Of a DNA stretch of 64,000 bases, positions 34,129 to 58,610 are shown piece by piece. Source of the DNA: Candidatus Marinacidobacterales bacterium (GTDB lineage: Bacteria; Acidobacteriota; Vicinamibacteria; Marinacidobacterales; SMYC01); assembly GCA_965224085.1 (NCBI GenBank), contig CBDCYI010000005.1, forward strand, positions 1,984,001 to 2,048,000. Direction: 5' to 3'. Positions within the stretch are counted from its first letter, which is position 1, and the number at the start of each line of letters is the position of its first letter. The notes beneath the pieces were generated by a model, which was not told the DNA's origin, did no database searches, and saw only the letters and a list, made by a program, of their open reading frames with translations. Made by a program: the position numbers and the translations under genes.

Positions 34129-34187
34129 CCTCCTCCAGCGGACCCTCCTTGTCTGTCCGCCGATTGTCCTCCCCAGCCAGGAGGGCA

Positions 34188-35953: not shown

Positions 35954-37717
35954 ATGATGAGGAACCTGAGATCGTTCGCAAGCCTAGGCATGCTCGTGCT
36001 CCCTGCAGTGTGGCTGGCAATGACGGAGGCGCGCGCCCAGGAGAGCCAACCGGTCCGCCACGCATCCCCGGAGCTCATCCAGCTCGCCGAAGAGTTTCGC
36101 GCCTTCCGCAGCCCGTTGTTTCGGCCGCGAACCTGGACTCCTACCCATCGGGTGGCTGGCGTGCCGGACTACGCGACGGTGGTGCGAGAGCAGCGAGAAG
36201 GACTGACGCGATTTCAAGAGCGACTGCGGGCCCTCGACCACCGCAGCTGGCCGGTGCACGACCGCGTCGACTACCTGGTGCTTCGCTCGGAGATGGACGA
36301 CGTTTTCTTCGAGCAGCACGTGCTGCGCGAGGTCGAGACCAATCCCAGCTACTACGTCGAGCAGGCCATCAACGGGGTCGCGCGGGAGATGGGTGACGTC
36401 GTTGCTTACAGTACGCAGAAGGCGGAAGCGATCATCGCCGCCTTCGAGCGGACCGGTCCCATCCTCGAGCAGACCGCCGGCAATATCGTGCTGGCCGAAA
36501 CCGCACCCGCGTTCGGCCGGATGGGCATGCGTCACGTGAAGAACATTCGAGCGCAATATGCCGCGGGCGTTCAACTTCTCGAGCCCCACTTCCCCGCGGG
36601 GCGTCGCGCGAGGCTGAGCTCGGCGGCCGAGCAAGCCGCGATCGAGCTCGAGAAGTACGGCACGTGGATCGAAGCGAACCTTCCGCAGATGAAAGGCCAG
36701 GCGCACGTCGGCCGGAAGAACATGGAGTGGTACTTCGAGCGGGTGAACTTCTCGCCCTGGAACGTCGAGGAGCTCCTGTTTCTCGGTGAGATGGAAAAGA
36801 ACCGCTTCCTCATGTCCATCGAGGTCGAAGAGACCGTAAACCAGGGGCTCAAAGAGCTCACGATGCCGACCACCGACGAGATGATCGAGTGGTTCCGGCT
36901 CACGTATCTGCAGACGAAGTACTGGCTGAAGGACACGGATCTCATCAGCTTCCATCCCTACATCGGGGAGTCGTACCTTCAAGCAGGAGCCTGGCAGGAG
37001 CCTTTCGGCCGCCTCGGCAACCGACCGGGGCTCATCGGTTTTCCCACCGAGCCGAAGCCGGAGCCCACCAAGCGGCTGTTCGTGGTCCCTGAAGGCCACT
37101 GGTTCACCGAAACGTACTGGGAGCGCACGATGCGGCTCGATCCGATCACCGACTACCAGCACTCCGACTGGCCGGGTCACTACTTCGAGGCCGCAGTGAC
37201 CAAGCGAAACCCTTGTCCCGTTCGGGCCGTTCACAAGGACACCGGCTTCTCGCAGGGCTGGGCGCACTACTGGGAGGAGCTGTTCCTGGACATGGGCTAT
37301 CCCTACTTGCGGGGACCGCGGACGCGTGAGCTCACGTACAACTTCCTGTTGTTGCGGGCGGTGCGGATCCCGCTCGACATCTATTTGTCCACCGGCGAGC
37401 ACTCGGTGGACGAGGCGGTTCAGTATCAGGTCGACCGCGTTCCCACGATGGAAGAGCACATCTCCCGGGCGGAGGTGGATATGTACGTGCGCTGGCCCTA
37501 TCAGGCTACGAGCTACATCGTGGGGAAGAAACAGATCGAGCAGATGCTTGCGGAGACGATCGTGAAGGGAGACTACAGCGTGAACTGGCGTGAGTTCCAC
37601 GATGCCATGCTCCAGTACGGACAGATCCCGCTGGCTCTGGTCCGATGGGAGCTGACAGGGAACTCCGATCAGGTCGAGGAGTTCTGGAAGGATCCGGATC
37701 GGCCGTCCACCGAATAG
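35954..37717 (+). CDS. DUF885 family protein (signal peptide)
   Basis: ARA-Q signal; HSDWPGHY, QGWAHYWE, PYQATSYIVGK, EFHDAML. Confidence 0.85.
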   Translation: MMRNLRSFASLGMLVLPAVWLAMTEARAQESQPVRHASPELIQLAEEFRAFRSPLFRPRTWTPTHRVAGVPDYATVVREQREGLTRFQERLRALDHRSWPVHDRVDYLVLRSEMDDVFFEQHVLREVETNPSYYVEQAINGVAREMGDVVAYSTQKAEAIIAAFERTGPILEQTAGNIVLAETAPAFGRMGMRHVKNIRAQYAAGVQLLEPHFPAGRRARLSSAAEQAAIELEKYGTWIEANLPQMKGQAHVGRKNMEWYFERVNFSPWNVEELLFLGEMEKNRFLMSIEVEETVNQGLKELTMPTTDEMIEWFRLTYLQTKYWLKDTDLISFHPYIGESYLQAGAWQEPFGRLGNRPGLIGFPTEPKPEPTKRLFVVPEGHWFTETYWERTMRLDPITDYQHSDWPGHYFEAAVTKRNPCPVRAVHKDTGFSQGWAHYWEELFLDMGYPYLRGPRTRELTYNFLLLRAVRIPLDIYLSTGEHSVDEAVQYQVDRVPTMEEHISRAEVDMYVRWPYQATSYIVGKKQIEQMLAETIVKGDYSVNWREFHDAMLQYGQIPLALVRWELTGNSDQVEEFWKDPDRPSTE

Positions 37718-37750: not shown

Positions 37751-39091
37751 GTGACAAATAACAACGAAGCGTCAAGCAACGTCCGATGGCGCATCATCGC
37801 CCTTCTGGTGGGCTTCAGCCTGGTGAGCTACATCCTCCGGATGAATATCTCCATCGCCGCCCAGTTCATGATGCCGGAGCTCGACATCACCCAGATACAG
37901 ATGGGGCAGATCTTCAGCGCGTTTCTGCTCGGCTACGCGCTGTTTCAGATCCCGCTCGGTGTCCTCGGAGACCGTCTGGGCTCCGGAATGCTGGTGACTC
38001 TCGGCGTCGTGTGGGCGGTGCTGACGGTGATCTCGGGGCTCCTGCCCGGCGTTGTCTTCGGGACCGGGACGGCCGCTTTCGTTCTGCTCGTTGTCGTGCG
38101 ATTCGTGCTGGGTGTCACCATCGCTGGCGTCTACCCCATCTCGGCGCTCACCGTGGCGAAGTGGCAGCCCGTGACGCAAAGGGCTTTTTCGTACTCGTTC
38201 ATCGTGGCCGGGGTCTTCATTGGCTCGGCGGTCACGCCGCCGATCGTGGCCTGGCTCATGGTGACGCTCGGCTGGAGAGAATCTTTCTATCTCGTGTCCG
38301 TTTTCGGCGTTGCAGCCGCTCTCACCTGGAAGTTCTACGGTGCCAACCATCCACGGGAGCATCCGGACGTCAGCCCCGGCGAGCTCGCGCTCATCACCGA
38401 GGGGCGGGAGCCCGCGGTGGGACCTCCTCCCGTGGGAGCGGTGTGGTGGACACTTCGCAACCCCTCGGTTCTCTTCCTGAGCGCCAGCTATTTCCTCGCC
38501 GGCTACGTGCTCTACACCTTCATTTTCTGGTTCTTCACGTATCTGGTGGAAGAGCGCCAGTTCACCCTCCTCGAGGGCGGCGTCTACGCGAGCTTGCCGT
38601 TCATCGCGGCGGGCATTCTGTCACCCGTTGGTGGTGCCATCTGCGACTGGTCGACGATGCGCTTCGGTCAGCGGTGGGGCCGACGACTCACCGCCTTCGC
38701 AGGACCGATTCTGGCCGGCGCACTGCTTTTCTGGGGAGCGCGAACCGAGAACGTGATTCTGGCCATCTGCGCGCTGGCGCTGAGCTTCGGTTTTCAAGAG
38801 TTCGCCGAAGCGGCCTATTGGTCGACCACCATGGATATCAGCGGCCGGATGACCGGCGCCGCGACGGGAATCCTGAACACGGCCAACAATCTCGGGGGCG
38901 TGGTCTCCACGGCGTTGATGCCGGTTCTGGTCCAGAAATGGGGGTGGGTTCCGGCCCTGGACAGTTGCAGCCTGCTGGCTGTTGTCTCGGCGGTGCTCTG
39001 GCTCGGCGTCCGTCCGGATCAGCCGATCGAAGTGCGGCAAGCGAACAGCGCGCAGGAGGTCGATGCCAGCTCGGCGGCTTCGCTTCCTTGA
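37751..39091 (+). CDS. MFS transporter (ACS/galactonate-like)
   Basis: R.NISIA, YALFQIP.G.LGDR, LGWR..F, G.LNT..NLGG; about 12 TMs. Confidence 0.92.
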   Translation: MTNNNEASSNVRWRIIALLVGFSLVSYILRMNISIAAQFMMPELDITQIQMGQIFSAFLLGYALFQIPLGVLGDRLGSGMLVTLGVVWAVLTVISGLLPGVVFGTGTAAFVLLVVVRFVLGVTIAGVYPISALTVAKWQPVTQRAFSYSFIVAGVFIGSAVTPPIVAWLMVTLGWRESFYLVSVFGVAAALTWKFYGANHPREHPDVSPGELALITEGREPAVGPPPVGAVWWTLRNPSVLFLSASYFLAGYVLYTFIFWFFTYLVEERQFTLLEGGVYASLPFIAAGILSPVGGAICDWSTMRFGQRWGRRLTAFAGPILAGALLFWGARTENVILAICALALSFGFQEFAEAAYWSTTMDISGRMTGAATGILNTANNLGGVVSTALMPVLVQKWGWVPALDSCSLLAVVSAVLWLGVRPDQPIEVRQANSAQEVDASSAASLP

Positions 39092-39108: not shown

Positions 39109-39612
39109 ATGGAAAAAGAATACTTCGAAGACTACACGGTGGGCGAGACGTTCGTCAGCCCGGCCCGCACGGTGACCGAATCGGACACCAACGCTTTCGC
39201 GATGCTGACCGGAGACTGGCATCCTTTGCACACCGACGTGACCTACGCGGAGAGCTCGGTGTTCGGCGAGCGCATCGCGCACGGGATGCTCACGTTGATC
39301 CTCGGCTCCACACTGGTCCTACGCCTCGGACCCCACGTTTACCTGCCGAAGAGCTTCATCGCTTTTTATGGCATCGACCGGGTGCGTTTCACGGCCCCGG
39401 TAAAGATCGGGGACACCATCCACGCCGTGAACCGCGTCAAAGATCTCGCTCCCAAGGACGAGGAGCGAGGAATCCTCCACTACGACGGCACGGTCCAGAA
39501 CCAGCGCGATGAAACGGTTCTCGTCTGGGAGGTCCGCATGCTGGTGGGCTGTCGCCCCGGGCAAACCGGGAGGGAGGAACAGGCCGCTGTCGAAGTGGAT
39601 TCTCGTTCGTGA
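39109..39612 (+). CDS. MaoC-family dehydratase
   Basis: YFED..VG, FAMLTGDWHPLH.D, RIAHGML, RFTAPV.IGDT. Confidence 0.9.
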   Translation: MEKEYFEDYTVGETFVSPARTVTESDTNAFAMLTGDWHPLHTDVTYAESSVFGERIAHGMLTLILGSTLVLRLGPHVYLPKSFIAFYGIDRVRFTAPVKIGDTIHAVNRVKDLAPKDEERGILHYDGTVQNQRDETVLVWEVRMLVGCRPGQTGREEQAAVEVDSRS

Positions 39613-39625: not shown

Positions 39626-41248
39626 ATGAAGAAGAAGAAACTGTGTCTTGCTGTCGCCACCGTTGTTCTCCTGGCTTCCGTCGCTTGTGGTCTGAGCAGC
39701 GGTGCCGGTGACTACCAGGCCCTCGTCGATCTCAACGACGAGTTTCTCGAGTTCCGCCGGCCGGCGATGACCAACGGCCTGCCAGACTACCGCAACGAAA
39801 CGATCGAGAGCCAGCGCGCGGGCCTGGAAAGCTTCGCCCAGCGGCTCCAGGCCATCGATCCGACGTCGTGGCCGGTGTCTCAGCAGGTGGACTACCTGCT
39901 CGTGCGGGCGCAGATCAATCGACTCGATTTCGATCATCGAGCGCGACGACGCTGGTCTCGTGATCCGGGCCTGTACGTCGACACCGTGCAGCGGCTGGCG
40001 TTCCATGAGTTTCCGCTCGAAGGGGAAAAGCTCGCCGAGCTGGAGACGCAGCTGGGCGGCGTTCCCGCTTTCCTGGCGCAGGCCGAAGACAACCTCACCG
40101 ACGGTGCGGGTGAGCTGACGATGCTCGCCCTCCGCAATCTCGTGACGGCCGACGGTGTGGGGCATGGCCATCCTTATCGGGAAGTGCCTCCCGCCGGCAC
40201 CATCGCCTGGTACGAGGATCTGGGTGAACAGCTCGAAAAGCACCACTCGGAGCTCGCCCCGAAAGCGAAAGAGGCGAAGGCGGCAGTCGAAGGATTCCAC
40301 CACTGGCTCAAAGCGAATCAAGGCCGGATGACCGCGCCTTCCGGAGTCGGCCGGGAGAACTACGACTGGTACCTTAAGTACGTAGCCATGATGCCCTTCA
40401 CGTGGGACGACGTGAACCGAATGGGCGATCGCGAGCTCCATCGGTCCTGGACCTTCCTGGAACTCGAAAGAAACAAGAACCGGAATCTGCCTCCGCTCGA
40501 GCCGGCGAAGAGTGCCGAGGACTACGCCCAGCGTATTCGCGAAGCGGATGAGCATATTCGGAAGTTCATCGTGGACATGGGCATCATCACCATCCCCGAC
40601 TACGTTGGCGACTTCGGCAGCAACGTTCCCTGGATCGTGCGCGAGGGCGGCAAGCGCAACTTCTGGGAGGAGGTCCAGTACCGCGATCCGCGGCCGGATC
40701 ACGTTCACGCCGTCATTCCAGGACATCGTTTCGACGGGCTGGTGAGAAGCCACGACGACCGGCCCGTTCGGGGTACGTACCGGGACAGAGGTCGTTCCGA
40801 GGGCTGGGGGTTTTATCTCGAGGAGATGATGCTGCAGGCGGGGCTTCTGGACGAGCGACCACGCACCCGGGAGCTCTATTACATCTTCCAGATTGCGCGT
40901 GCGGTTCGAAACCGCGCGGAAGCCCTGATGCATACCAACGACTTCACCGTCCAGGAAGCGGTGGACTACATGGTGGACAACACGCCCTTCATGGACGAAG
41001 ACGTGGCCCGGGTGGACGCCGAGATCTATCTGAAGACGCCGGGCTCGGGGATCGCCTATCAGATGGGGAAGCTTCAGATCGACGAGCTCATGATGGATCG
41101 CGCGCTTCAGCTGGGTGACAAGTTCAACTTGAAGGAGTTCCACGATGCGTTCATGGCGGCGGGAACGATCCCGATCTCGCTCATCCGTTGGGAAATGACC
41201 GGTTACGACGACGAGGTCAAGGACTTGTTCGAGAAGCCCGAAACATGA
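39626..41248 (+). CDS. DUF885 family protein (probable lipoprotein)
   Basis: SVAC lipobox-like; HAVIPGHR, EGWGFYLE, F.LKEFHD. Confidence 0.85.
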   Translation: MKKKKLCLAVATVVLLASVACGLSSGAGDYQALVDLNDEFLEFRRPAMTNGLPDYRNETIESQRAGLESFAQRLQAIDPTSWPVSQQVDYLLVRAQINRLDFDHRARRRWSRDPGLYVDTVQRLAFHEFPLEGEKLAELETQLGGVPAFLAQAEDNLTDGAGELTMLALRNLVTADGVGHGHPYREVPPAGTIAWYEDLGEQLEKHHSELAPKAKEAKAAVEGFHHWLKANQGRMTAPSGVGRENYDWYLKYVAMMPFTWDDVNRMGDRELHRSWTFLELERNKNRNLPPLEPAKSAEDYAQRIREADEHIRKFIVDMGIITIPDYVGDFGSNVPWIVREGGKRNFWEEVQYRDPRPDHVHAVIPGHRFDGLVRSHDDRPVRGTYRDRGRSEGWGFYLEEMMLQAGLLDERPRTRELYYIFQIARAVRNRAEALMHTNDFTVQEAVDYMVDNTPFMDEDVARVDAEIYLKTPGSGIAYQMGKLQIDELMMDRALQLGDKFNLKEFHDAFMAAGTIPISLIRWEMTGYDDEVKDLFEKPET

Positions 41249-41262
41249 GGCAGGAGGTCAAG

Positions 41263-42963
41263 ATGACGTACACGTTGCAACTCGGTCTCGCTCTCGCCGT
41301 CGCGCTCGCCGCCACGACGTCCGTGAGCCTTGCCCAGAAGTCTGCGGATTCTCGGGACGCGCTCCTCAACCAGGGACCCAAGGCCCTGGCCAGCGGCGAG
41401 TCAGCCATGGTGTCGACCCAGCTCCCCAACGTCACTCGAGCCGCTCTGAGAGTTCTGGCGGACGGAGGAAATGCGGTCGATGCCTTCGTGACCGCTGTTT
41501 TTCTCCAGCACGTCGAGGATACGCATCAAGTCTCGCACTTCGGTGCGATGTCCGGCCTCTACTATGAAGCTTCCACCGGGAACTACTATGCCTTCAACGC
41601 CTTCTCGGAGCGACCCCGGGCCGATCGATGCGGGAGCGGCAAGAAGGTCGGCCGGCTCGCGATTGGAGGCACGGTGCGAGGTCTCGAATCCCTGGCCAAG
41701 CGCTTCGGCACGATACCCTGGCCGAGCTATCTCGAGCCCGCCATCGCCTCGGCGGAGCAAGGGGTCCTCGTCACGAACTTCATGTACGCCCGTAACTACA
41801 ACTTGTGGGAAACGGGAGATCTGATTCAGCAGAACGAAGAGGCGCGAGCGTTCTACATGCCGGCGGGCCACCTCGTTCCGGTGGGCGGGTACTGGAAGAT
41901 GCCGGCCCTCGCGGAGACGCTCAGAAAGGTCGCGGAACACGGAGCAGACCATCTGTACAAAGGTGAGTGGGCGCAGAAATTCGTCGAGCAGGCCAAAAAG
42001 CGTGGCTACTGCGTCACCCTCGACGATCTCGCCGAGTACGAGACGCGCTGGCTCGAGCCGGCGCATTTCACGTATCGGGGCCACGAGATCATCGTCGAGC
42101 CGCCTCCCAACAAGGGCGGCCTGCTGGTCGGCCAGAACCTGAACGTACTGGAACAGTTCGACCTGAAGAGCAAAGGCCATTACGCGGAGTCGGCCGAGAC
42201 GCTCGAGATCATGGTCCGGAGCTTCGGCAAAGTCGAATCGGACATGAAGTGGTCGATCCAGGATCCGGCCGCCTACCACAACCCGTTCGAGCTCTGGTAC
42301 TCGAAGGAGTACGCGAAGATGAGCGCCGAGTACGTCCGGCAGACGATGCCGCAGCCGGGCGTCGATCTGTCGTCGGCGATGAAACGCGTGGCCATGGACA
42401 CCAAGGTGGCGTCGAACGTGATGAACCTGGGCAGCAACCACAACGTGATCGTCGACGCCGAAGGCAACTGGATTACGTCGCTCCACACCGGACACGGCGG
42501 TGCACCCGGTATCTTCATCGACGGCGTCCGCGCGACGGGCAGCGGGGTCAAAGCCGAGACGATGGGCCCGGGACGGCGCATTCTCGCCGAAGTGACGGGC
42601 GTGTTCGTGGCCCGAGACGGAAAGCCCTGGCTCTCGCTGGGGACACCCGGCTTTCCACCGCAACCGGTAACCGAAGTTCTCGTCAATATCCTTGACTTCG
42701 GGATGCATCCAAAGGAGGCCGCCGCCGTACCGCGATTCTGGGCTTTCCTCTACCGTCAGACGGACCGTCGCCTTCTTCGCATCGAATCGCGGATCTCGGA
42801 GAGCGTTCGCAACGGCATGGCAAGAAGTGGCATCCAGCTGGAAGAGCTCGGGGACTACAACTGGCATACCGGCTCGATGCAGATCGTCTGGCGGGATGCG
42901 GCGACCGGAAGGATTCACGGAGTCAGCGATCCGAGGCGACTCGGCCATGCCGAAGGCTTCTGA
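41263..42963 (+). CDS. Gamma-glutamyltransferase-like Ntn hydrolase (exported)
   Basis: Signal peptide; GGNAVDA, LAETL, YRG, SNHNVIVDAEGN, SDPRR. Confidence 0.85.
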   Translation: MTYTLQLGLALAVALAATTSVSLAQKSADSRDALLNQGPKALASGESAMVSTQLPNVTRAALRVLADGGNAVDAFVTAVFLQHVEDTHQVSHFGAMSGLYYEASTGNYYAFNAFSERPRADRCGSGKKVGRLAIGGTVRGLESLAKRFGTIPWPSYLEPAIASAEQGVLVTNFMYARNYNLWETGDLIQQNEEARAFYMPAGHLVPVGGYWKMPALAETLRKVAEHGADHLYKGEWAQKFVEQAKKRGYCVTLDDLAEYETRWLEPAHFTYRGHEIIVEPPPNKGGLLVGQNLNVLEQFDLKSKGHYAESAETLEIMVRSFGKVESDMKWSIQDPAAYHNPFELWYSKEYAKMSAEYVRQTMPQPGVDLSSAMKRVAMDTKVASNVMNLGSNHNVIVDAEGNWITSLHTGHGGAPGIFIDGVRATGSGVKAETMGPGRRILAEVTGVFVARDGKPWLSLGTPGFPPQPVTEVLVNILDFGMHPKEAAAVPRFWAFLYRQTDRRLLRIESRISESVRNGMARSGIQLEELGDYNWHTGSMQIVWRDAATGRIHGVSDPRRLGHAEGF

Positions 42964-43046
42964 GCAGGCGGCTCCTGAGAATGCATCGGCAGAGGCTGCC
43001 GAAGAGGAGGACGGGAGCAGCGAACGAGGAGTGAGCGACCATTGAT

Positions 43047-43116
43047 GAAAGGCCGAAAGGCCGAAAAGCCGACGACACACCGAGCGCCGAGCGAGGAGCG
43101 AGGCGCCAGGCGCGCG
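43047..43116 (+). repeat. Short imperfect tandem repeats (8-mer GAAAGGCC x3; 7-mer GAGCGAG-like x5)
   Basis: Directly visible in the intergenic spacer. Confidence 0.5.
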
Positions 43117-43159
43117 AACGAGCAGTGAGCGCACAATGATACAAAAAAGGAGGAACGTA

Positions 43160-44881
43160 ATGAGAAGATCTAAATGGACCCAAGTCCTGGCAGTGGTGGG
43201 CGTCATCGCCTTTGCCTCCGCCGGGATAGCACAGGACGTACCGACCGACCCCGCCGATCCCCGGCTCAACCAGGGACCGAAACCGGAGGCGATCGGGGAG
43301 AAGGTCATGGTGGCCACCCAGCTGCCGCAGGTCAGCAATGTGGCGATCCAGGTGATGAAGGATGGAGGCAATGCGGTAGATGCCATGGTGGCGGCCGTCT
43401 TCATGCAGCACGTGAACGATTTTCACCAGGTCTCTCACTTCGGCTCGATGTCGGTCATCGGTTATGACGCCGCGACCGACAAGTACTGGGCGCTGAACGC
43501 GGTCTCCGAGCGCCCGCCGGCCGATCGCCACGAGCACGGGGACCCCGAGAAGGTCGCCATCGGTGGCGTCGTGCGCGGTCTCGAAGCGATCGCCGAACGC
43601 TACGGAAGCGGCACCATGGAGTGGTCGAGCTACCTTCAGCCGGCCATCACCTCGGCGGAGGAAGGCGTTGTCGTGACCTCCTTCATGTACGGCATCAACT
43701 ACGGGCTCATGGAGCGAGGTGAGCTCGTCAAGAACCCGGAGGCGCGCCAGGCCTACATGGCGAACGGTCATCTCGTTCCGGTCGGAGAGCGCTGGAAGCG
43801 CCCGAAGTTCGCCGAGACGCTTCGCAAGGTCGCCTCCGAAGGGGCCGACTACCTCTACACCGGAGCCTGGGCCAAGAAGTTCGTCGAGGCCGCCAACAAG
43901 AAAGACTATGCGGTCAGCATGCAGGACCTGGCGGAGTACGAGCCGAAGTGGGACGAGCCGACACGATTCACTTATCGGGGCCTCGAGTTCTACGGCTCCC
44001 CACCGCCGGACACCGGTGGCCTGATCGTCGGAAGCAACCTCAACATTCTGGAGAACTTCGATCTGAAGAGCATGGGCCACTACAGTGAGTCGCCCGAGGC
44101 CCTCGAGATCATGATCCGCGCCTTCGGCCGGGTCAACGACGAGACCCGTTGGGTCATCAAGGATCCGCTCAATTTCCGCATCCCCTCGGAGCTCTGGCTC
44201 TCCAAAGAGTACGGAAAGATGGGAGCCAAGTTCGTGGAGAACACGATGCTGCTTCCCAAAGTGGACCTCGCTCCCGCCACCGAGACCACCGCCGCATTGG
44301 TACAGCCGGCGACGCCGCTGTTTCCCGCCGGCGCCGACGGTGCGGACAGCGCCGATCTGGGAAGCAACCACAACGTCATCGTGGACTCGCAAGGGAACTG
44401 GGTGTCGATGCTCCACACCGGACACGGTGGTGCCCCGGGCATCTTCATCGATGGGGTGAGGGCGACGGGAAGTGGCGCCCGCGCCTACACCGCGGGTCCC
44501 GGCCGTCGACTGGTCCTGCCGATCACCGGGATCATCGTCGCCAAGGACGGAAAGCCGTGGCTGGCGATGGGTACCCCCGGCTCGCCTCCGCAGCCGGTGA
44601 CCGAGGTTCTGGTGAACATCATCGACTACGGCATGCATCCGAAAGATGCCGCAGACGCGCCGCGCTTCTGGGCCTTCCGAAACGACGAACGTGGGGTTCG
44701 CATCGAGTCCCGCATCTCCGACAGCGTGCGGAAGGGCATGAAGAGGAGGGGGATCAAGGTGACCGATCTCGGTGATTACAACTGGCACACCGGCTCCATG
44801 CAGATCATCTGGATGGGTGAGGACGGGAAGCTTCACGGAGCCACCGATCCCCGACGACTCGGAACGGTCATAGGTTACTGA
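43160..44881 (+). CDS. Gamma-glutamyltransferase-like Ntn hydrolase (exported)
   Basis: AGGAGG RBS, signal peptide, GGNAVDA, SNHNVIVDSQGN, TDPRR. Confidence 0.85.
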   Translation: MRRSKWTQVLAVVGVIAFASAGIAQDVPTDPADPRLNQGPKPEAIGEKVMVATQLPQVSNVAIQVMKDGGNAVDAMVAAVFMQHVNDFHQVSHFGSMSVIGYDAATDKYWALNAVSERPPADRHEHGDPEKVAIGGVVRGLEAIAERYGSGTMEWSSYLQPAITSAEEGVVVTSFMYGINYGLMERGELVKNPEARQAYMANGHLVPVGERWKRPKFAETLRKVASEGADYLYTGAWAKKFVEAANKKDYAVSMQDLAEYEPKWDEPTRFTYRGLEFYGSPPPDTGGLIVGSNLNILENFDLKSMGHYSESPEALEIMIRAFGRVNDETRWVIKDPLNFRIPSELWLSKEYGKMGAKFVENTMLLPKVDLAPATETTAALVQPATPLFPAGADGADSADLGSNHNVIVDSQGNWVSMLHTGHGGAPGIFIDGVRATGSGARAYTAGPGRRLVLPITGIIVAKDGKPWLAMGTPGSPPQPVTEVLVNIIDYGMHPKDAADAPRFWAFRNDERGVRIESRISDSVRKGMKRRGIKVTDLGDYNWHTGSMQIIWMGEDGKLHGATDPRRLGTVIGY

Positions 44882-44940
44882 CACTACATTGGATGGCGGG
44901 GTCTCTGACTCGAGGGGCCCCGCCTCGAAAAGGAGGGGGC

Positions 44941-46662
44941 ATGCACTGCGCAAAAGCCATGCGGATGATACTGGTTGGTCTGCTCACCTGGCTCTCTGTG
45001 TCGACCGCCTGGAGCCAACCGACCCTGCCCGACGATGCACGGGACGCCATCTACAACCAGGGCCCGAAGCAGGAAGCGGTCGGCGACAAGGTGATGGTGT
45101 CGACGCAGCTTCCCATCGTGACCGAGACCGCCCTTCAGGTTCTTCGCGACGGGGGTAATGCGATCGATGCCTTCGTCACCGCCGTCTTTCTTCAAAACGT
45201 CGTCGACTATCACCAGGTGAGTCTCTTCGGTGCCATGGGCGGGCTCTATTACGAGGCGGCCACCGGGAAGTACCACGTCTTCGAGTCCTACTCGGAGAGA
45301 CCGCTCGCGGGTCGCTGTGGCGAAGGCGATCCTTCCAAGGTGGCCATCGGCGGCAAAGTGGCGGGCCTGAACGCTCTCGCCGAACGATTCGGCACCCGCA
45401 AGTGGGCGGAGTATCTCGATCCGGCCATCGCCGCGGCGGAAGAAGGTGTTCTAGTCACCTCCTTCATGTACGGCAGCAACTACAACAACTGGGAAACGGG
45501 CGACCTCATCCAGCAGAACGAGGAGGCCAGAGATTTCTACATGCCGGAGGGTCATCTCGTTCCGGTGGGCCACCGCTGGAAGATGCCGAAAGTGGCGGAG
45601 ACGTTGCGCCATATCGCCTCGGAGGGGGCCGACTATCTCTACACCGGCGCCTGGGGGAAGAAGTTCGTCGAGAAGTCACGCGAGAAAGGTTATTGCGTGA
45701 GCCTCGAAGACATGGCGGACTTCCAGGTGCGCTGGTCCGATCCCGTCCGCTCCACGTACCGCGGCTACGAGATCGTGAGCGAGTCGCCACCGAAAAAGGG
45801 TGGCGTTCAGATCGCCTACAACCTCAACATTCTCGAGAACTTCGATCTGAAGAGCCTCGGTCACTACGCGACGTCGGCGGAAAGCCTCGAGATCCTGACG
45901 AGGGCGCTCGGCAGGGTGGAGAACGATATGCGGTACGGGATCGCCGATCCGAAGGCGTTTCAGATCCCAACCGAGGTGTGGCTGTCGAAAGACTACGCCC
46001 GGTTCGGCGCCGATTTCGTACGGCAGACGATGGTCGTTCCCAACGTGGATTTGACGCCGGCCAAAGCAACGGCAGCGCTCCATCGTCTGGCCCCGACACG
46101 GATCGCGCGGTCCGCCGACGCGCCGCCGCTGGTCGACGAGAGCAATCACAACGTCATCGTCGATGCCGAAGGGAACTGGATCACGTCGCTTCACACCGGA
46201 CATGGCGGCGCGCCGGGGATCTTCATCGACGGCTTGCGGGCGACCGGGAGCGGTTTTCCCGGCCAGACGGTGGGCCCAGGCCGGCGGGTGAGCCCCAACA
46301 GCACCGGTACGATCGTGGCCAAGGACGGAAAGCCGTGGCTCGCTCTCGGCTCGCCGGGCGTACCGCCCCAGCCGGTGACCCAGATACTGGTGAACATCAT
46401 CGACTTCGGCATGGATCCCGGCGACGCCGCGGACGCACCGCGCTTTTTCGCCTTCCGTACCAACGAGCGGGTTCTGGCCATCGAGTCCCGCATCTCCGAC
46501 GACGTGCGAAAGGGTCTGAAGGCCCGCGGCATCAAGATCGAAGACCTTGGTCCGTACAACTGGCACACCGGCTCCATGCAAATCGTCTGGAGGGATCCGG
46601 AGACGGGAAAGCTTCACGGCGTGAGCGATCCCCGCCGACTCGGCCGCGCCGCCGGCTTCTGA
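44941..46662 (+). CDS. Gamma-glutamyltransferase-like Ntn hydrolase (exported)
   Basis: AAGGAGG RBS, signal peptide, GGNAIDA, SNHNVIVDAEGN, SDPRR. Confidence 0.85.
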   Translation: MHCAKAMRMILVGLLTWLSVSTAWSQPTLPDDARDAIYNQGPKQEAVGDKVMVSTQLPIVTETALQVLRDGGNAIDAFVTAVFLQNVVDYHQVSLFGAMGGLYYEAATGKYHVFESYSERPLAGRCGEGDPSKVAIGGKVAGLNALAERFGTRKWAEYLDPAIAAAEEGVLVTSFMYGSNYNNWETGDLIQQNEEARDFYMPEGHLVPVGHRWKMPKVAETLRHIASEGADYLYTGAWGKKFVEKSREKGYCVSLEDMADFQVRWSDPVRSTYRGYEIVSESPPKKGGVQIAYNLNILENFDLKSLGHYATSAESLEILTRALGRVENDMRYGIADPKAFQIPTEVWLSKDYARFGADFVRQTMVVPNVDLTPAKATAALHRLAPTRIARSADAPPLVDESNHNVIVDAEGNWITSLHTGHGGAPGIFIDGLRATGSGFPGQTVGPGRRVSPNSTGTIVAKDGKPWLALGSPGVPPQPVTQILVNIIDFGMDPGDAADAPRFFAFRTNERVLAIESRISDDVRKGLKARGIKIEDLGPYNWHTGSMQIVWRDPETGKLHGVSDPRRLGRAAGF

Positions 46663-46668
46663 AGTACC

Positions 46669-46694: not shown

Positions 46695-46718
46695 AGACTT
46701 CATGCAATGGTGGACGTG

Positions 46719-48332
46719 ATGAAAAGAAGCACTCTCGCCGCAATTCTTGGTTCCGTTGTACTGGCTCCTGCACCGGCCTATTCGCAAGGCGCCCACGCGG
46801 ACGTCGTTCGCTTGTACGATGAGCTCCAGGAGCTCCGAGAGCCAGAGTTCGTCGACGGTGTGCCGGATCTTTCATCGGAAGCGATAGAGAAGCAGAAGCG
46901 CGGCCTGGAAGCACTCCGTCGCGAGCTGAACATGATCGAGCCGAGAGCCTGGCCCGTTCCGCAACAGGTGGACTACCTGCTGGTGCGCGCGAAGATGGAC
47001 GAACTCGACTTTCATCATCGCGTCATAAAGCCGTGGGCGCGCGACCCGGGCTTCTATCTCGACTCGATAGCACAGATACCTTTTGCCGAGGTCCCGCTCG
47101 ACTCCGGGGAAGCCTCCGAGCTCGAACGTCGACTGCGGTCGGTGCCCGCCGTCCTGGAGCAGGCGAAGTCGTACTTGACGGAAGGCGCCCGCGATCTTTT
47201 GGTGGTCGCCCTCAGAAACCTGAAAGAGTCACGCCGCGTCGGCGGGGGACAGCCGATGCGGAACGAGCCACCCCCGGGTGTGGTTGGCTGGTACCAGGAC
47301 CTCGTCGAGCGCCTTGCCGACCAACATTCCGACCTGGTGCCGGTGGCGAAGGAAGCTCTCGCTGCCGTCGAGGGCTACCGGGACTGGCTCGAGGAGAACC
47401 GGGAGCAGATGACCGCTCCAGGTGGCATCGGACTCGACGACTACGACTGGTTCTTGAAGCACGCCCGCCTGATGCCCTTTACCGCCGGCGACGTGCGGGC
47501 CTTGGGAGAGCGGGAGGAGCAGCGCGGGTGGGCTTTTCTGAAGATCGAGCAGAACCAGAATCGAGACCTTCCCGAGCTCGAGCTGGCGAAAACAAGAGAA
47601 GAGTACATTGGACGCGTGCGGGAGGCGGACGTGCACATCCGGGCGTTCATCCGCACCGAGGGCATCTTGACGATCCCCGATTTCATCGGAGAGCTTGACC
47701 GGCACGTCCCGTGGGTGGAGCGTCCGACCGACTATCTTCGCTTCTGGGAGCAGCTCCAGTATCGCGATCCCCGTACCGACCACGTGCACGCCACGATCCC
47801 CGGCCACCAGTTCGACGGACGGATCCAGGCCCGGGACGAGCGGCCCATCCGGGCTGGGTACCGGGACGGCGCCCGCGGCGAAGGCTGGGGTTTCTATCTG
47901 GAAGAGATGATGCTTCAGGCCGGTCTTCTCGACGAGCGGCCCCGAGCTCGCGAGCTCTACTACATCGCCCAGCTCGGCCGGGCGGTCCGCATCGCCTCGG
48001 AGCTCATGATGCACGGCCGGGAGGGGTCGATCGAAGAGGCGGTCCGCTACATGCTCGAGCACACGCCCTGGATGGACGAGCACGTCGCCTGGTTCGACTG
48101 CGAGGTGTACCTGCGGCGGCCGACCTATGGCATTGGCTACACGATCGGAGCCGTCCAGATTCAGCAGCTCTTGTCCGACCGGGCCCGTCAGCTCGGGGAG
48201 GCCTTCGACCTTCGCGAGTTCCACGACGCGATTCTGGGCGCGGGGCGGATTCCCATCTCGATGACCCGATGGGAGATGACCGGCCTGGGCGATGAAGGGA
48301 GCAGGTTTTTTGACGACTCAGGCGGGCAGTAG
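46719..48332 (+). CDS. DUF885 family protein (signal peptide), paralog of 39626-41248
   Basis: HATIPGHQ, EGWGFYLEEMMLQAGLLDERPR shared with 39626-41248, FDLREFHD. Confidence 0.85.
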   Translation: MKRSTLAAILGSVVLAPAPAYSQGAHADVVRLYDELQELREPEFVDGVPDLSSEAIEKQKRGLEALRRELNMIEPRAWPVPQQVDYLLVRAKMDELDFHHRVIKPWARDPGFYLDSIAQIPFAEVPLDSGEASELERRLRSVPAVLEQAKSYLTEGARDLLVVALRNLKESRRVGGGQPMRNEPPPGVVGWYQDLVERLADQHSDLVPVAKEALAAVEGYRDWLEENREQMTAPGGIGLDDYDWFLKHARLMPFTAGDVRALGEREEQRGWAFLKIEQNQNRDLPELELAKTREEYIGRVREADVHIRAFIRTEGILTIPDFIGELDRHVPWVERPTDYLRFWEQLQYRDPRTDHVHATIPGHQFDGRIQARDERPIRAGYRDGARGEGWGFYLEEMMLQAGLLDERPRARELYYIAQLGRAVRIASELMMHGREGSIEEAVRYMLEHTPWMDEHVAWFDCEVYLRRPTYGIGYTIGAVQIQQLLSDRARQLGEAFDLREFHDAILGAGRIPISMTRWEMTGLGDEGSRFFDDSGGQ

Positions 48333-48606: not shown

Positions 48607-48739
48607 TCCGTACCAAATGAGAGTTGTTCATTCGTGCCTTTGTTTTACTCGCCAGTGAACCGGGGATCGCTTCCTCGGTTTTGTCTATTTCTCGCCGGAC
48701 GCTGATCGAGTGGGCTCGGCGGCAAGGAGGATCCAAGCT

Positions 48740-51613
48740 ATGTCCTTAAATTCGTTGCTCCATCGACCTTCATGGCGTTTGACGCTGACGGCGGTGCTCG
48801 TTGTGGTGCTGGCCTCGGGGCTCGCCTTCGCCCAGGATCGGACGGGCGACATCTACGGCAAAGTCACCGACGACCAGGGACTCGGAATCCCTGGGGCGAC
48901 GGTCACCGTCACCAGCCCGGCGCACATCAAGACCGAGATAATCGTCACCGGCAACGAGGGAAACTACCGGGCCGTCCGCCTGAGCCCGGGCTCCTACACG
49001 GTGAAAGTAGAGCTTTCCGGTTTCCGGACGGTGACGAACCAAGAAGTGGTGCTGCTGGCGGGTCAGTCGATCGCGGTAAACGCGACGCTCTCACCCGCCG
49101 CGGTAGAGGAGACGATCACCGTCACCGGCGAGTCGCCCTTGGTGGACGTCAAGAACGTCCAGGTGATGCGGACGCTGGAAACGGAGCTTCTCGACAACAT
49201 CCCGAACGGTCGCAAGTACGCGGACCTTCTCACCACGGTGGCCGGGGTGCTCGACGCCGAGTACGGCTTCACGCCCGCCCAGACGGTGCACGGGAGCTCG
49301 CCCCGGGACAACCTGTACAACATCGACGGGGCGGCCTTGAACGACACCACGGTGGGTTATATCGCCACCGAGATCCCGATCGATATGATCGAAGAAGTCC
49401 AGATCACCACCAGCGGTATCTCGGCGGAGCACGGTCTGTCCACCGGGGGTGTGTTCAACTTCGTCACCAAATCGGGCGGTAACGACTTCAGCGGCACCGC
49501 CAACTTCTTTTACGAGGGCGAGGGCCTGACCGCGGACAACCTGACCCCCGAGCTTGCGGAGCAGATCCCCCAGGGAAGCGTCATCGAAAAGAACCAGGAG
49601 ATCGGCGGCACCGTCGGTGGTCCGATCAAGCGCGATAGTGTCTGGTTCTTTTTCAATTTGCGCCGGACCGAAGTGGATGTCGCAGAGCCTTTCCTTCCGC
49701 CGGGCTCGCCCCGTGCCACGAATCAGACCCACAGCTTCACCAAGGCGACCTGGCAGGCGCATGCGAACACCCGGATCGAAGGCTCCTTGACCACGCGGGA
49801 TCAGGACCAGAATCCCGGCAACGTCCGAAGCTTCTCGAACGCCGACGCCCCCGAGACCTGGGAGATCCTCAAACGCTCCCAGCGCATCGTTCACGTGGCC
49901 GCAACGCACGTCTTCTCGCAGAACACGCTCATGGACGCGCGATTCAACCGGGTGTTCAAGAACTTCGACCGGGAGTATCCCAACAATCCCGATCTCGTTG
50001 TGGGGTACAGAGACATCGGCACCAACAAGCAGTTCGGTGGTCAGTTCGACCGCAGAGGACTCCGAAGAACCTTGGCCCGCGACATCGGGCAGTTCCACGT
50101 CTCGCTCTCGAACTACAAGGAGAACTGGGGAGGCTCGCACGAGTTCAAGGGCGGTTTCTACGCGGAGCGCTCACCGTTCGATAACGAGAACTTCTGGCCG
50201 AACGGTGAGGACATCGAGCAGCGCCTGCGCTTCGGCGAGGCCCACCGCGTGCGCTTGTGCGTGTGTCCGCAGGACGGCGTCAAGTCGAGCATCGACCGCT
50301 ATGCCGCCTACTTCCAGGATCAGTGGACGATCACCGATCGGGTGACACTGAACGCCGGCATCCGCTGGGAGGGCACCGAGGGATGGATTCCGGAGCAGAG
50401 CGCCGGCGGCGGCCGATTCTTCGCCTTGGAGACCCAGGAAGAGCTACGGGACCAGATCAACTTGAGCACCTTCGCTCCGCGGCTGGGCGTCGCCATTGCG
50501 CTCGACGAGGCAGGGCGGAGTACGCTGAAGGCCAGCTACGGTCGTTACTACGCCATGCTCCTGAATCAGACGGCGCTCAGGCTCGTCCAGGTGGGAGGCT
50601 TCGAGGAATACCGGTGGAACGACCTCAACGGCGATCTCGTCTTCCAGGAAGGTGAGGCGGGAGCCCTGACCCGCGGGCGCAGCGCCGGTTTGCGCGAGTC
50701 CGATCCCGACTTGAAGCAGCAGTATGTCGACAACTTCAACATCACCTTCGAGCAGCAGTTCGGCCGCGACTTCGTTTTCTCCGTGGCCGGGATCATCAAG
50801 CGGGAGAACGACATCATCGAGACCGCTGACATCGGCCGGCCCTTCTCCGCCTACAACGAGGTCACCGTGACGAACCCCGTCGACGGACAGCCCATCAACA
50901 TCTTCGTTCTCGATCCTTCCTTTCTGGGCTCCCCCACGGTTACCTTCATCACCAACCCCAAAGATCCGACACCGCTGTTCCGGGACTTCGACGCTCTCGA
51001 GCTCGTGTTCCAGAAGCGCTTCCGCGAGGGCTGGCAGATGCTCGCCTCCTACACCTGGAGCAGCTCCTACGGCAACATTGGCAACAGCTACGGCTCGAGC
51101 TCCGGTGGCCGGTCCGTCTACGACAACCCCAACACCACCCTCATCAACATCGAGGGTCCTCTCGATATGGACGTGCCCCACGCCTTCAAGCTCCAAGGCA
51201 CCTATGTGTTCCCGCACGACGTCTGGGTCAGCGCTTACTATCAGGGCCTTTCCGGCTTCCCCCTCAAGCTCCCCCAGGATTTCCCCAGCGACCCGGCACT
51301 CGGGGCCCGCACGGTTCGCTTCTTCCGTGAGGATGTACCGGAAATGGTGGTCGAGAGCTTCATCGACATCGCCGGCACGCAGAGGGGCTCCGAGCGACAT
51401 GACTTCAAGCATCTCGTGAACTTGCGGGCGGAAAAGAAATTCAACCTGGGAGGCGGCGCGCGCATCGGCATCATCGCCGATGTGTTCAACCTGTTCAACA
51501 GCAGCCGGGTGACCACGGTTCAGTCGTTGCGCGTCGACCTGCCACAGTTCCACGTTCCGGCGCGGATCGAGTTCGCCCGCCGGCTTCGAATCGGTCTCCG
51601 CTTCGAGTTCTAA
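48740..51613 (+). CDS. TonB-dependent receptor (Oar-like, carboxypeptidase-regulatory-like N-domain)
   Basis: AAGGAGG RBS, signal peptide, G.VTD..G..IPGATV, ETITVTGESPLVD, TKSGGN.F.G, QDQWT, C-terminal F. Confidence 0.92.
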   Translation: MSLNSLLHRPSWRLTLTAVLVVVLASGLAFAQDRTGDIYGKVTDDQGLGIPGATVTVTSPAHIKTEIIVTGNEGNYRAVRLSPGSYTVKVELSGFRTVTNQEVVLLAGQSIAVNATLSPAAVEETITVTGESPLVDVKNVQVMRTLETELLDNIPNGRKYADLLTTVAGVLDAEYGFTPAQTVHGSSPRDNLYNIDGAALNDTTVGYIATEIPIDMIEEVQITTSGISAEHGLSTGGVFNFVTKSGGNDFSGTANFFYEGEGLTADNLTPELAEQIPQGSVIEKNQEIGGTVGGPIKRDSVWFFFNLRRTEVDVAEPFLPPGSPRATNQTHSFTKATWQAHANTRIEGSLTTRDQDQNPGNVRSFSNADAPETWEILKRSQRIVHVAATHVFSQNTLMDARFNRVFKNFDREYPNNPDLVVGYRDIGTNKQFGGQFDRRGLRRTLARDIGQFHVSLSNYKENWGGSHEFKGGFYAERSPFDNENFWPNGEDIEQRLRFGEAHRVRLCVCPQDGVKSSIDRYAAYFQDQWTITDRVTLNAGIRWEGTEGWIPEQSAGGGRFFALETQEELRDQINLSTFAPRLGVAIALDEAGRSTLKASYGRYYAMLLNQTALRLVQVGGFEEYRWNDLNGDLVFQEGEAGALTRGRSAGLRESDPDLKQQYVDNFNITFEQQFGRDFVFSVAGIIKRENDIIETADIGRPFSAYNEVTVTNPVDGQPINIFVLDPSFLGSPTVTFITNPKDPTPLFRDFDALELVFQKRFREGWQMLASYTWSSSYGNIGNSYGSSSGGRSVYDNPNTTLINIEGPLDMDVPHAFKLQGTYVFPHDVWVSAYYQGLSGFPLKLPQDFPSDPALGARTVRFFREDVPEMVVESFIDIAGTQRGSERHDFKHLVNLRAEKKFNLGGGARIGIIADVFNLFNSSRVTTVQSLRVDLPQFHVPARIEFARRLRIGLRFEF

Positions 51614-57197: not shown

Positions 57198-58610
57198 TCA
57201 CTGAGAGCGGCCGATGACCAGTAGTTCTTGCTGCCGGGCAACGAAGTACCCCACCCCGTTGTCGGTGAGCCGGGCGTTCTCCTCGATGCGAATCGGCACC
57301 ACTTTGCCGTCCCACTCGGGGATGGGCGTGCTCACGTGAAGCTCGACCGAATACCAGGCTTCGGCTGCAAGCGGATAGCGCACACGATCCCCGTAGGCGA
57401 ACGGCCAGTCGATGGCAACCCGCGCGCCGATGTCGTGGGTGGAGTTTCCGACCGAATGGGAGTAGATGCCGACCTCCGGCTGGGTGGGGTCGGCTTCCAC
57501 GGCGCCGCCGGTCTTGGGCTGGCCGGCGTAGTACCCCATCATGCCGATGTCCTCCATCGTCAGCTCCCAGACCTCGTGTGCAATCGCCCCTGGTTTCATG
57601 TTCGCGGTCAGGACATCGGTCACCTTCATCGCGTCTGCGAAGGCCTTCTGGAGGCTTTCCGGGGCCTCCGTCTCACCGGGCTTCAGCACGTAGGCGGTTC
57701 GCTTGATGTCGGTACGGTAGTCGATGAAGGCAAGGCCCGCGTCGACCGAAAGGACGTCGCCCGGCTCGACGGTGTGCTCCGGGGTGTTGGTAGGAAGGTT
57801 CTCACCGTTGCGGGTGATGCGTATACCCGGCAGAAACTCCACCTGGAGACCGAGCTCCATCGCTCGCTGTCGCATCCACCAGTGAATGTTGTTCGCCGTC
57901 GTCTCTCCCACCGTCACGACCGCATCGGAGAACGCCTCTTCCTCCCAGGCCACCGTCCACTCGCAGAGATCACGAAAAACCTCGATCTCGTCGGCGATGT
58001 GCATCGTGCGAAAGTCGCGGACCAGCAGCTCCGCCGACACCATGCGGGACGCGTACTCGGGACCCAGGGTGTCCTCCAGAAACGTCCTCAGCGTCCACGA
58101 CAGGCCGTCAGCCATCGGAAGCGTCGGAGAGACGTTGATCCCGATCCTTTCCGGATCCCGCTCCCCCACGACCTTCTTCAAGTGGGGGCTGACACCCCCC
58201 TCGGTGTAGCCGTAGTAGATGAGTTCGTCGTAGGCGTCTCGAATCGTCGTGTCTCGGAGCTCGTGAGAGCCAATGAAGATCTTCTCCGGCGTGTCACCTC
58301 CCCGGTCGAAGAAGAGATAGGCATTGCGCACACCTCCCCAGCCTCCTCCGATCTCCGAGAGGATCGGGTCGGTGTGGTGCTCCCGGCTGAACACCAGCCA
58401 TAGATCGATGTCGTGCGCGCGCATGGCCGGGAGGAGCACGCCGTCCAGACGCTTTTGAATGAGGCGCTTTCGAATCTCAAAGCGCTCCCTGGCGTCCGGA
58501 ATCTCGAGTGTCTCGGTGGGACTCGCGGCGTCCCCGGCCCCGGAGGGACCGCAGCCGTTGGCGGCGAGGACGACCAGAAGAGTCGTCAGAAGCAGTCTAA
58601 TCCGAATCAT
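57198..58610 (-). CDS. M24-family aminopeptidase (lipoprotein)
   Basis: ANGC lipobox-like; D, D (TDIKRT), H (SHSVG..THD), E, E ligands. Confidence 0.88.
   Translation of the reverse strand: MIRIRLLLTTLLVVLAANGCGPSGAGDAASPTETLEIPDARERFEIRKRLIQKRLDGVLLPAMRAHDIDLWLVFSREHHTDPILSEIGGGWGGVRNAYLFFDRGGDTPEKIFIGSHELRDTTIRDAYDELIYYGYTEGGVSPHLKKVVGERDPERIGINVSPTLPMADGLSWTLRTFLEDTLGPEYASRMVSAELLVRDFRTMHIADEIEVFRDLCEWTVAWEEEAFSDAVVTVGETTANNIHWWMRQRAMELGLQVEFLPGIRITRNGENLPTNTPEHTVEPGDVLSVDAGLAFIDYRTDIKRTAYVLKPGETEAPESLQKAFADAMKVTDVLTANMKPGAIAHEVWELTMEDIGMMGYYAGQPKTGGAVEADPTQPEVGIYSHSVGNSTHDIGARVAIDWPFAYGDRVRYPLAAEAWYSVELHVSTPIPEWDGKVVPIRIEENARLTDNGVGYFVARQQELLVIGRSQ

Follow-up and report, generated by a model that had tools for sequence, protein, structure and literature searches.

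Does a protein of the gamma-glutamyltransferase (GGT) family that carries Ser where its relatives carry the nucleophilic Thr remain a glutathione hydrolase, or does it belong to an enzyme of another kind? The question is raised by three tandem paralogs encoded at positions 41263-46662 of a 64,000-nucleotide stretch of contig CBDCYI010000005.1 (below, the window) from a Candidatus Marinacidobacterales bacterium. The homologues of these proteins bear the source names 'gamma-glutamyltranspeptidase/glutathione hydrolase', which were given by automatic pipelines. A preliminary description of this DNA had proposed instead that the proteins carry Ser at the nucleophile position, lack the gamma-glutamyl pocket and form a distinct Ser-nucleophile subfamily. 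Our analysis leads us, with moderate confidence, to regard the three as exported, self-cleaving Ser-nucleophile amidohydrolases of peptide/protein-utilisation loci and not as glutathione hydrolases; self-cleavage, catalysis by Ser and the substrate class are the parts of this reading that we infer. The three rival explanations weighed below rank lower.

Each paralog has an AGC codon at the nucleophile position (Table 1), and the surrounding residues read LG-SNHNVIVDAEGNW, LG-SNHNVIVDSQGNW and DE-SNHNVIVDAEGNW in paralogs 1, 2 and 3, with the general form (G/E)-SNHNVIVD. To place this Ser within the family, E. coli K-12 ggt was taken from its annotated record and aligned by MAFFT with the 18 full-length PF01019 open frames of the genome to which the window belongs. 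In all three proteins, the Ser shares a column with E. coli Thr391, so that the Thr nucleophile of the family is absent while its hydroxyl is kept. In an independent alignment, made by phmmer with the T399A precursor of B. licheniformis GGT (PDB ID: 4y23), the paralog Ser likewise stands opposite the mutated nucleophile residue 399. Both alignments agree with the preliminary description in placing Ser at this site.

The membership of the three proteins in the family is clear from their Pfam matches (PF01019, G_glu_transpept), which score 242, 249.1 and 245.2 bits for paralogs 1-3 against a gathering cut-off of 27 (E 1.7e-71 for paralog 1), and the paralogs are about 59-62% identical to each other. 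The structure modelling and comparison suggested earlier were also carried out. An AlphaFold2 model of paralog 2, calculated from a 58-sequence alignment, has a mean predicted local distance difference test (pLDDT) score of 88.8 and a predicted template-modelling score of 0.88; pLDDT falls below 50 only at residues 386-406 and in short stretches among the first 32 residues. The best Foldseek match of this model is the E. coli T391A GGT precursor (2e0w; E 9.7e-36, target template-modelling (TM) score 0.83-0.85), and further matches are 4y23, a cephalosporin acylase (2nlz), LmbA (6j3a) and a Thermoplasma homologue (2i3o). Foldseek probability is 1.00 for 2e0w, 4y23, 2nlz and 6j3a, and the target TM scores range over 0.74-0.85 among the ten best matches. 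The three proteins are thus members of the GGT fold family (PF01019) of N-terminal-nucleophile (Ntn) hydrolases, which has an alpha-beta-beta-alpha architecture. In the model of paralog 2, a beta strand begins exactly at Ser410, after the low-confidence, disordered linker 386-406, and this predicted linker-then-strand layout matches the cleavage site of a GGT precursor. The model also contains an N-terminal helix (residues 14-28). The N-termini of the three paralogs, in which a hydrophobic segment precedes SLA-Q, GIA-Q or AWS-Q, fit export of the proteins. GGAGG lies 6 nt 5' of the ATG of paralog 1, while the true start of paralog 3 is uncertain, as in-frame ATGs up to 44965 yield a more typical signal peptide.

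In E. coli GGT, R114, N411, Q430, D433, S462 and S463 have roles in binding glutamate. Roles of such residues are described in passages of PMC4568574 and PMC8062742. None of the nine rows of the SNHN clade, to which the paralogs belong, keeps any of these six residues, and G484 is likewise kept in 0/9. Since these positions are lost, the whole gamma-glutamyl pocket appears, from the aligned sequences, to be replaced or deleted in the three proteins, as the preliminary description had supposed. The counterpart of E. coli residues ~425-455, a stretch that carries Q430, D433 and the lid loop, is deleted. The Pfam alignments agree with this gap, because each paralog matches the PF01019 hidden Markov model (HMM) at 2-347 and ~387-510, leaving ~348-388 unmatched. 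The motif changes listed earlier are all seen in the MAFFT alignment: FSERP, VSERP or YSERP occupies the site of E. coli DFREMAP; GPGRR followed by ILAEVT, LVLPIT or VSPNST stands at the site of GPNKRPLSSMSPT (the GPNKRPLSS region), without any RPLSSM; and GTPGFPPQP, GTPGSPPQP or GSPGVPPQP replaces GSPGGSRIITT. In the paralogs, HTGHGGAPGIFIDG comes after the nucleophile strand, and the putative small subunit, whose shortening had been noticed before, has 176, 172 and 173 residues from the coordinates, compared with 190 in E. coli. At the same time, D398, T409, G483 and R513 (E. coli numbering) are kept in 9/9 clade rows each. The Gly-Gly pair of the oxyanion hole is therefore incomplete, with G483 retained and G484 changed to F, S, V, W or L.

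These losses bear directly on the automatic annotation, which would make the three proteins ordinary gamma-glutamyltransferases/glutathione hydrolases with a conservative Thr-to-Ser exchange. We consider this very improbable. The names of the homologues and the strong Pfam match speak for it, but the paralogs retain 0/6 glutamate-binding residues and have no Q430/D433 loop, and it is because of the replaced or deleted pocket that we do not regard the proteins as glutathione hydrolases or gamma-glutamyltransferases. In addition, all three paralogs score below both NCBIfam GGT equivalog cut-offs (TIGR00066, 210.3-232.6 bits against 357.85, with paralog 1 at 210.3; NF007187, 149-173.9 bits against 990). 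The same genome already contains a canonical GGT at C9:453710-455401, with TTH, DFREMAP, RMLSSMTP and GSPGG; therefore, the Ser-type genes are no replacement for GGT. A search of the ESM Atlas returned nothing beyond generic 'gamma-glutamyltranspeptidase domain' clusters.

The nucleophile column was then followed through close and more distant relatives. A word-indexed search found 433 relatives, of which the best 120, at 55-99% identity, were listed; Ser occupies the site in 119 of these 120, with P0072 fitting neither pattern, and the residues after it vary (N/D/C, then H/Q/A). Invariant in the 58-sequence alignment are S410, D417, H427, T428, H430, G431, G432, R457, R458, G479, P481 and G482. 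R126, likewise invariant, may line the pocket together with H427, H430, R457 and R458. When 1.84 billion cluster representatives were searched exhaustively by phmmer, 11,181 hits had E <= 1e-3, and a residue census was made on the 122 representatives of at least 480 residues among the best 150 of these hits (50%-identity clusters). In this sample, the column holds 64 Thr, 56 Ser and 2 other residues, and the Asp seven residues further on is kept in 120/120 Ser/Thr representatives. A column restricted to Ser or Thr in 120/122 sequences, together with an Asp that is always kept, is the pattern expected of a hydroxyl nucleophile.

The family tree proposed in the preliminary description was built with FastTree from 139 rows, after P0127 and P0189 (L or R at the nucleophile column; probably fragments or misalignments) had been left out. 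With midpoint rooting, it divides into an all-Thr clade of 61 rows, including E. coli GGT, and a Ser-dominated superclade of 78 rows (64 Ser and 14 Thr), although the Shimodaira-Hasegawa (SH)-like support of this split is only 83. The superclade requires 12 Ser/Thr changes, of which at least 11 are forced by well-supported branches. Within it lies the SNHN clade (9 rows, SH-like support 100), whose sister lineages read SCH/SCE and SNH/TNH. The SNHN proteins are thus one branch of a much larger unrecognised group. The earlier idea of a distinct Ser-nucleophile subfamily holds insofar as the clade is well supported and devoid of the glutamate-binding residues, which fits the amidase with a non-glutamyl substrate that was proposed there, but the Ser itself is not special to it, being present in 56/122 representatives. 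The repeated flips within a Ser/Thr-only column provide the strongest sequence argument that the hydroxyl may be a working nucleophile.

The genome itself contains both types. Among 35 PF01019 HMM matches, the 18 full-length open frames comprise 8 Ser-type and 10 Thr-type proteins (several subtypes), the rest including fragments. Apparently broken copies include C4:414173-415959, with two overlapping frames, and C11:1212072-1213482, with 3 in-frame TGA. The Ser-type paralogs at C5:2066215-2068065 and C5:696628-698475 are near-identical (branch lengths 0.006 and 0.019) and both adjoin M16-family genes; a module of GGT-like and M16 genes thus seems to have been copied recently by segmental duplication.

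Positional orthologues of each copy, with 81-86% amino-acid identity, occur in related metagenome-assembled genomes. The ratio of nonsynonymous to synonymous substitution rates (dN/dS) is 0.089-0.206 in 9 orthologue comparisons, revealing purifying selection on each of the three copies; judged by these substitution patterns, the three genes are functional. A scan of one genome per species yielded 58 loci with homologues. Of these, 57 belong to uncultured Acidobacteriota (Vicinamibacteria, sponge/marine bins), Aminicenantes, Gemmatimonadota, Wenzhouxiangella and a few others, and the 58th, from Roseobacter sp. S98, is 28% identical and falls outside the clade. Two or three tandem copies are present in 17 related loci, and all three in 15 of them. 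Of 30 genomes related to that of the window, 7 contain the clade, the highest copy number being 10. In a phylum sample of 200 other genomes, in which up to 6 candidates per genome were scored, 3 genomes matched at E <= 1e-80, all at 37-39% identity, which shows that the SNHN clade is rare in this sample, not absent.

Metatranscriptome contigs from four studies (X15, X17, X19 and X20) span the three genes at >=95% likeness, and one 6.6-kb contig spans 39430-45523; as the runs were chosen with this very stretch and DNA carry-over is possible, this cover is no proof of expression. In contigs of three runs, the 172-nt spacer 42964-43135 between paralogs 1 and 2 carries several small indels while the flanking coding sequence has none, which fits non-coding DNA.

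The gene context, which was absent from the preliminary description, was added here. All genes of the interval 34149-48332 share the same strand, are separated by 13-172 nt and stand in the order DUF885, DUF885, MFS, MaoC-like, DUF885, the three GGT-like genes and DUF885, and a receptor gene follows after 377 nt (Table 1).

Table 1. Coordinates of the GGT-like genes, their nucleophile-position codons and neighbouring genes in the window.
Feature	Coordinates	Strand	Evidence and remarks
GGT-like Ser-type paralog 1 (566 aa)	41263..42963	+	Open reading frame; predicted signal peptide; nucleophile-position Ser391
GGT-like Ser-type paralog 2 (581 aa)	43136..44881	+	PF01019 E 1.2e-73; nucleophile-position Ser410; AlphaFold2-modelled
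GGT-like Ser-type paralog 3 (589 aa from first ATG)	44893..46662	+	PF01019 E 1.9e-72; nucleophile-position Ser417
AGC Ser codon, paralog 1 nucleophile position	42433..42435	+	Sequence, MAFFT alignment
AGC Ser codon, paralog 2 nucleophile position (Ser410)	44363..44365	+	Sequence, phmmer and MAFFT alignments
AGC Ser codon, paralog 3 nucleophile position	46141..46143	+	Sequence, MAFFT alignment
DUF885 protein a, first of same-strand run	34149..35939	+	PF05960 E 5.6e-60
DUF885 protein b	35954..37717	+	PF05960 E 2.1e-34
MFS transporter	37751..39091	+	PF07690 E 5.8e-53
MaoC-like dehydratase domain protein	39130..39612	+	PF01575 E 1.1e-25
DUF885 protein c, 14-nt gap to paralog 1	39626..41248	+	PF05960 E 7.5e-45
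DUF885 protein d, 44-nt gap after paralog 3	46707..48332	+	PF05960 E 5.7e-42
TonB-dependent receptor with CarboxypepD_reg N-terminal domain	48710..51613	+	PF25183, PF13620, PF00593, PF07715
M24-family peptidase-like protein	57198..58610	-	PF00557; orthologue (75-79% identity) after triplet in 13/17 syntenic loci

In 13 of the 17 syntenic loci, the triplet is preceded by a gene for a TonB-dependent receptor, 59% identical to that of the window, and by a DUF885 gene at the position of protein c; an M24-family gene also lies 3' of the triplet in 13/17. The N-terminus of DUF885 protein c is a hydrophobic stretch followed by Cys, and its PDB relatives 3o0y and 3u24 are titled 'lipoprotein'. The other Ser-type genes of the genome are found in similar company: receptor, GGT-like, M16, M16 at C5:2071329-2079483; GGT-like, M16, M16 at C5:2066215-2071277; receptor, GGT-like, M16 at C5:694959-701604; amidohydrolase, S9 peptidase, GGT-like at C4:1175250-1181215; and GGT-like, S9 peptidase at C11:146546-150262. 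By tblastn, a DUF885 (~16 hits in the genome), M16, S9, M24 or amidohydrolase hit lies within 300 bp of 7/8 Ser-type genes compared with 1.4% of 20,000 random 1.7-kb intervals, and the eighth gene, without such a neighbour, is the middle one of the triplet. For TonB-dependent receptors, 5/8 genes have a hit at a distance of up to 2.5 kb, compared with 1.6% of random intervals. Because of this context of peptidases and TonB-dependent receptors, the likely role of the proteins is narrowed to peptide or amide utilisation.

Further afield, in two cultured bacteria, an SCE-type homologue on a plasmid of Pseudonocardia sp. EC080610-09 adjoins amidohydrolase, S9 peptidase and MFS genes, and an intact SCE-type homologue on a plasmid of Lichenicola cladoniae PAMC 26569 adjoins a peptide ABC transporter and a DUF885 gene. 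On the former plasmid (pBCI2-1), the SCE-type gene at 5800-7700 is spread over two frames, with a coding sequence annotated for no more than its last 282 bases; a frameshifted pseudogene or an error of sequencing is the probable explanation.

The neighbourhood can also be read differently. If the peptidase genes were only loosely related to them, the three proteins might be amide-bond acylases for non-peptide substrates such as N-acyl compounds, lipopeptide or siderophore tails, and beta-lactam-like or other small amides, which we hold to be unlikely. The GGT fold has been recruited repeatedly to non-glutathione substrates, with class IV cephalosporin acylase, the oxamate amidohydrolase HpxW and LmbA as known divergent examples, and 2nlz, HpxW (5hft), CapD (3g9k) and LmbA (6j3a) are PDB relatives of the paralogs. 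Moreover, amidohydrolase-family genes stand beside two homologues, tblastn found no peptidase neighbour in 25/40 non-syntenic loci, and MFS and MaoC genes are part of the window's cluster. However, in five separate loci of one genome, the partners of a Ser-type gene are M16, S9 or DUF885 genes together with TonB-dependent receptors, and there are no adjacent biosynthetic genes. The MFS and MaoC-like genes were not found in the related syntenic loci, and the 6.6-kb contig of metatranscriptome run X15 joins 37821 to 39430, skipping 37822-39429, so that the MFS gene is largely missing from it and the MaoC-like gene lacks its 5' portion. For these two reasons, the segment 37821-39430 looks like a strain-specific insertion.

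Under the reading that we prefer, of exported Ser-nucleophile amidohydrolases, each precursor would cut itself before the conserved Ser (Ser391, Ser410 or Ser417), and the freed N-terminal Ser would serve as catalytic nucleophile. Two conserved elements would help it, namely the Thr of LHT, equivalent to E. coli T409, and, in G(T/S)PG, the backbone surrounding the Gly that corresponds to E. coli G483. The proteins would act in the periplasm or at the cell surface within peptide/protein-utilisation loci, with DUF885, M16, S9 and M24 family proteins and TonB-dependent receptors as partners, and the bonds cleaved would probably be peptide-derived amides. Chemistry of this kind is plausible by analogy, since engineered Thr-to-Ser variants of H. 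pylori and B. licheniformis GGT still self-process, as stated in part of PMC8062742, and so does Thr-to-Ser Ant6 according to a section of PMC5519988.

Several points weigh against this reading. The Thr-to-Ser GGT mutants are slow to process and lose ~89-92% of their activity (extracts of PMC8062742), and LmbA T421S does not process at all (extracts of PMC5519988); therefore, a Ser in the GGT fold need not be competent. In the clade, other residues take the place of the second Gly of the oxyanion hole (E. coli G484), and in B. licheniformis GGT the G481R exchange in the oxyanion-hole glycine pair abolishes processing, as given in a portion of PMC8062742. The gene context is also uneven. Among non-syntenic loci of other taxa, only 15/40 have a peptidase-family neighbour in reach of the tblastn queries. 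Pfam analysis of the neighbours of three distant loci (L049, L047 and L043) gave PhoD, PfkB, MreB/MreC, DHDPS, protein kinase, thiolase and amidohydrolase, which are unrelated and uninformative on function, except for a TonB-dependent receptor in L049. The peptidase association is thus strong in this lineage and partial elsewhere. Finally, the DUF885 neighbours are themselves unusual. HE is expected at the start of the DUF885 family motif. The family is placed in the zinc-metallopeptidase clan Peptidase_MA, which is defined by HExxH (passages of PMC12572635). In proteins a-d, the H-x-x-x-P-G-H stretch reads HDGIPGH, HSDWPGH, HAVIPGH and HATIPGH, with a Glu after the first His in none of them. 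Lacking this Glu, they may be inactive peptidases that act as non-catalytic binding proteins.

Part of the same evidence would agree with non-catalytic, uncleaved GGT-fold proteins that serve as binding or scaffold subunits and in which Ser is merely tolerated: Thr-to-Ser cripples the known GGTs and abolishes processing of LmbA, G484 is lost, and the DUF885 neighbours also lack a residue expected for catalysis. We nevertheless judge this improbable, because a dead site would be expected to drift, while purifying selection on the genes is strong, the equivalents of T409, D398, G483 and R513 persist throughout the clade, and only Ser or Thr, with repeated switching between them, occupies the nucleophile column in 120/122 representatives.

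Our reading of the three proteins as self-cleaving Ser-type amidohydrolases could be extended in a tentative manner to their relatives. It is possible, though doubtful, that the whole Ser-dominated PF01019 superclade represents unrecognised exported Ser/Thr-nucleophile peptidases, everywhere annotated as GGT or glutathione hydrolase, which might cleave ordinary or modified peptide bonds in TonB-dependent protein-utilisation loci of Acidobacteriota, Gemmatimonadota and others. Peptide-bond cleavage of that kind is an activity undescribed for the GGT fold.

The remainder of the window was surveyed as well. A promoter and terminator scan of 33500-52500 gave 4 promoter-like sites compared with 3.1 expected and 11 terminator-like sites compared with 13.7 expected, from which operon limits are not derivable. 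Rfam analysis of the whole window detected no riboswitch or leader near the locus, and a separate search found no tRNAs. The sole Rfam match is an ALIL pseudoknot at 1963-2079 on the reverse strand (99 bits, gathering score 50); ALIL is a frameshift element of IS3-type transposases, and an insertion sequence is probably located at the left end of the window. Beside the peptide-related run, the region 20026-33722 contains AtuA-family, carboxyltransferase, biotin carboxylase, enoyl-CoA hydratase and thiolase genes, as well as short-chain dehydrogenase, 2-oxoacid dehydrogenase E1/E2 and three luciferase-like monooxygenase genes, and looks like a region for branched-chain or acyclic-terpene acyl-CoA degradation. 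At 53876-60095 on the reverse strand, two M24-family peptidase-like genes come after a gene for a 1121-aa Sortilin/BNR-repeat protein. There are 37 Sortilin-type hits in the genome, and one such gene is also found near a GGT-like gene in each of the loci L040 and L065.

A large natural Ser group such as the superclade, with at least 11 switches to or from Thr, would mean that the fold tolerates either residue. It would offer natural backgrounds for asking why engineered Thr-to-Ser GGTs are poor enzymes and, if the activity proposed for the superclade is true, its repeated switching would let nucleophile choice in Ntn hydrolases be studied as a natural experiment. For annotation, counting Ser-type genes as part of glutathione or gamma-glutamyl metabolism would mislead reconstructions of marine and sponge-associated Acidobacteriota. 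In ecological terms, a module for foraging on protein or peptides is suggested by the repeated association with TonB-dependent receptors and with M16, S9 and DUF885 proteins.

In passages of PMC4568574, of a 2021 review (PMC8062742) and of the 2017 LmbA paper (PMC5519988), only Thr is described as nucleophile of characterised GGT-fold proteins. Our literature search, covering open full text and so excluding subscription journals and supplements, among them Additional file 3 of PMC4568574 (a family alignment that could bear on natural Ser), returned no natural Ser nucleophile in the GGT family and no characterised member of the SNHN clade.

Among known systems, penicillin G acylase and class I cephalosporin acylase provide a chemical parallel, as both attack amide bonds with an N-terminal Ser that self-cleavage has set free. 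Ser-nucleophile Ntn hydrolases of other families are also named in part of PMC8062742. Unlike the window proteins, the two acylases belong to different families, and neither was among the sequence or fold matches of this analysis. The nearer relatives CapD and HpxW have a Thr nucleophile. LmbA and Ant6 do as well, according to a section of PMC5519988. These four proteins resemble the paralogs as structural matches in which the GGT fold is reused for other acyl substrates, but, judging by the PDB searches, none of them is part of the Ser-dominated superclade, and no PDB entry of the superclade appeared among the sequence- or fold-search matches.

Class IV cephalosporin acylase and YwrD-like proteins, represented by B. 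halodurans 2nlz (Foldseek E 2.0e-32), share with the paralogs a GGT fold without Arg114 and the Ser-Ser pair, and 2nlz has an Arg two residues later in an N-x-S-x-R-x-P stretch, comparable to SERP. In contrast to the window proteins, this type has a Thr nucleophile and GxxGG. Membership of the paralogs in this group was considered and rejected, as the T-V/I-Y, GxMGG proteins of the same genome, labelled YwrD-like by motif in a tree that contains no named YwrD or class IV acylase sequence, fall into the all-Thr clade, while the window proteins fall into the other.

The reference enzyme remains E. coli Ggt (2dbu/2e0w), which we take to represent MEROPS family T03. The paralogs resemble it in Pfam family and fold, in ~27% sequence identity, in being predicted exported precursors, in the hydroxyl residue that opens the small-subunit strand and in the retained equivalents of D398, T409, G483 and R513. 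They differ from it in carrying Ser for Thr391, in not keeping R114, N411, Q430, D433, S462, S463 and G484, in the deletion of the lid loop and the alpha-amino-binding loop, in a small subunit that is 14-18 residues shorter and in belonging to a different major clade. Compared with this enzyme, the exchange of Thr for Ser is chemically conservative and occurs in a known fold, but the group that carries it is worth the attention of enzymologists and relevant to annotation.

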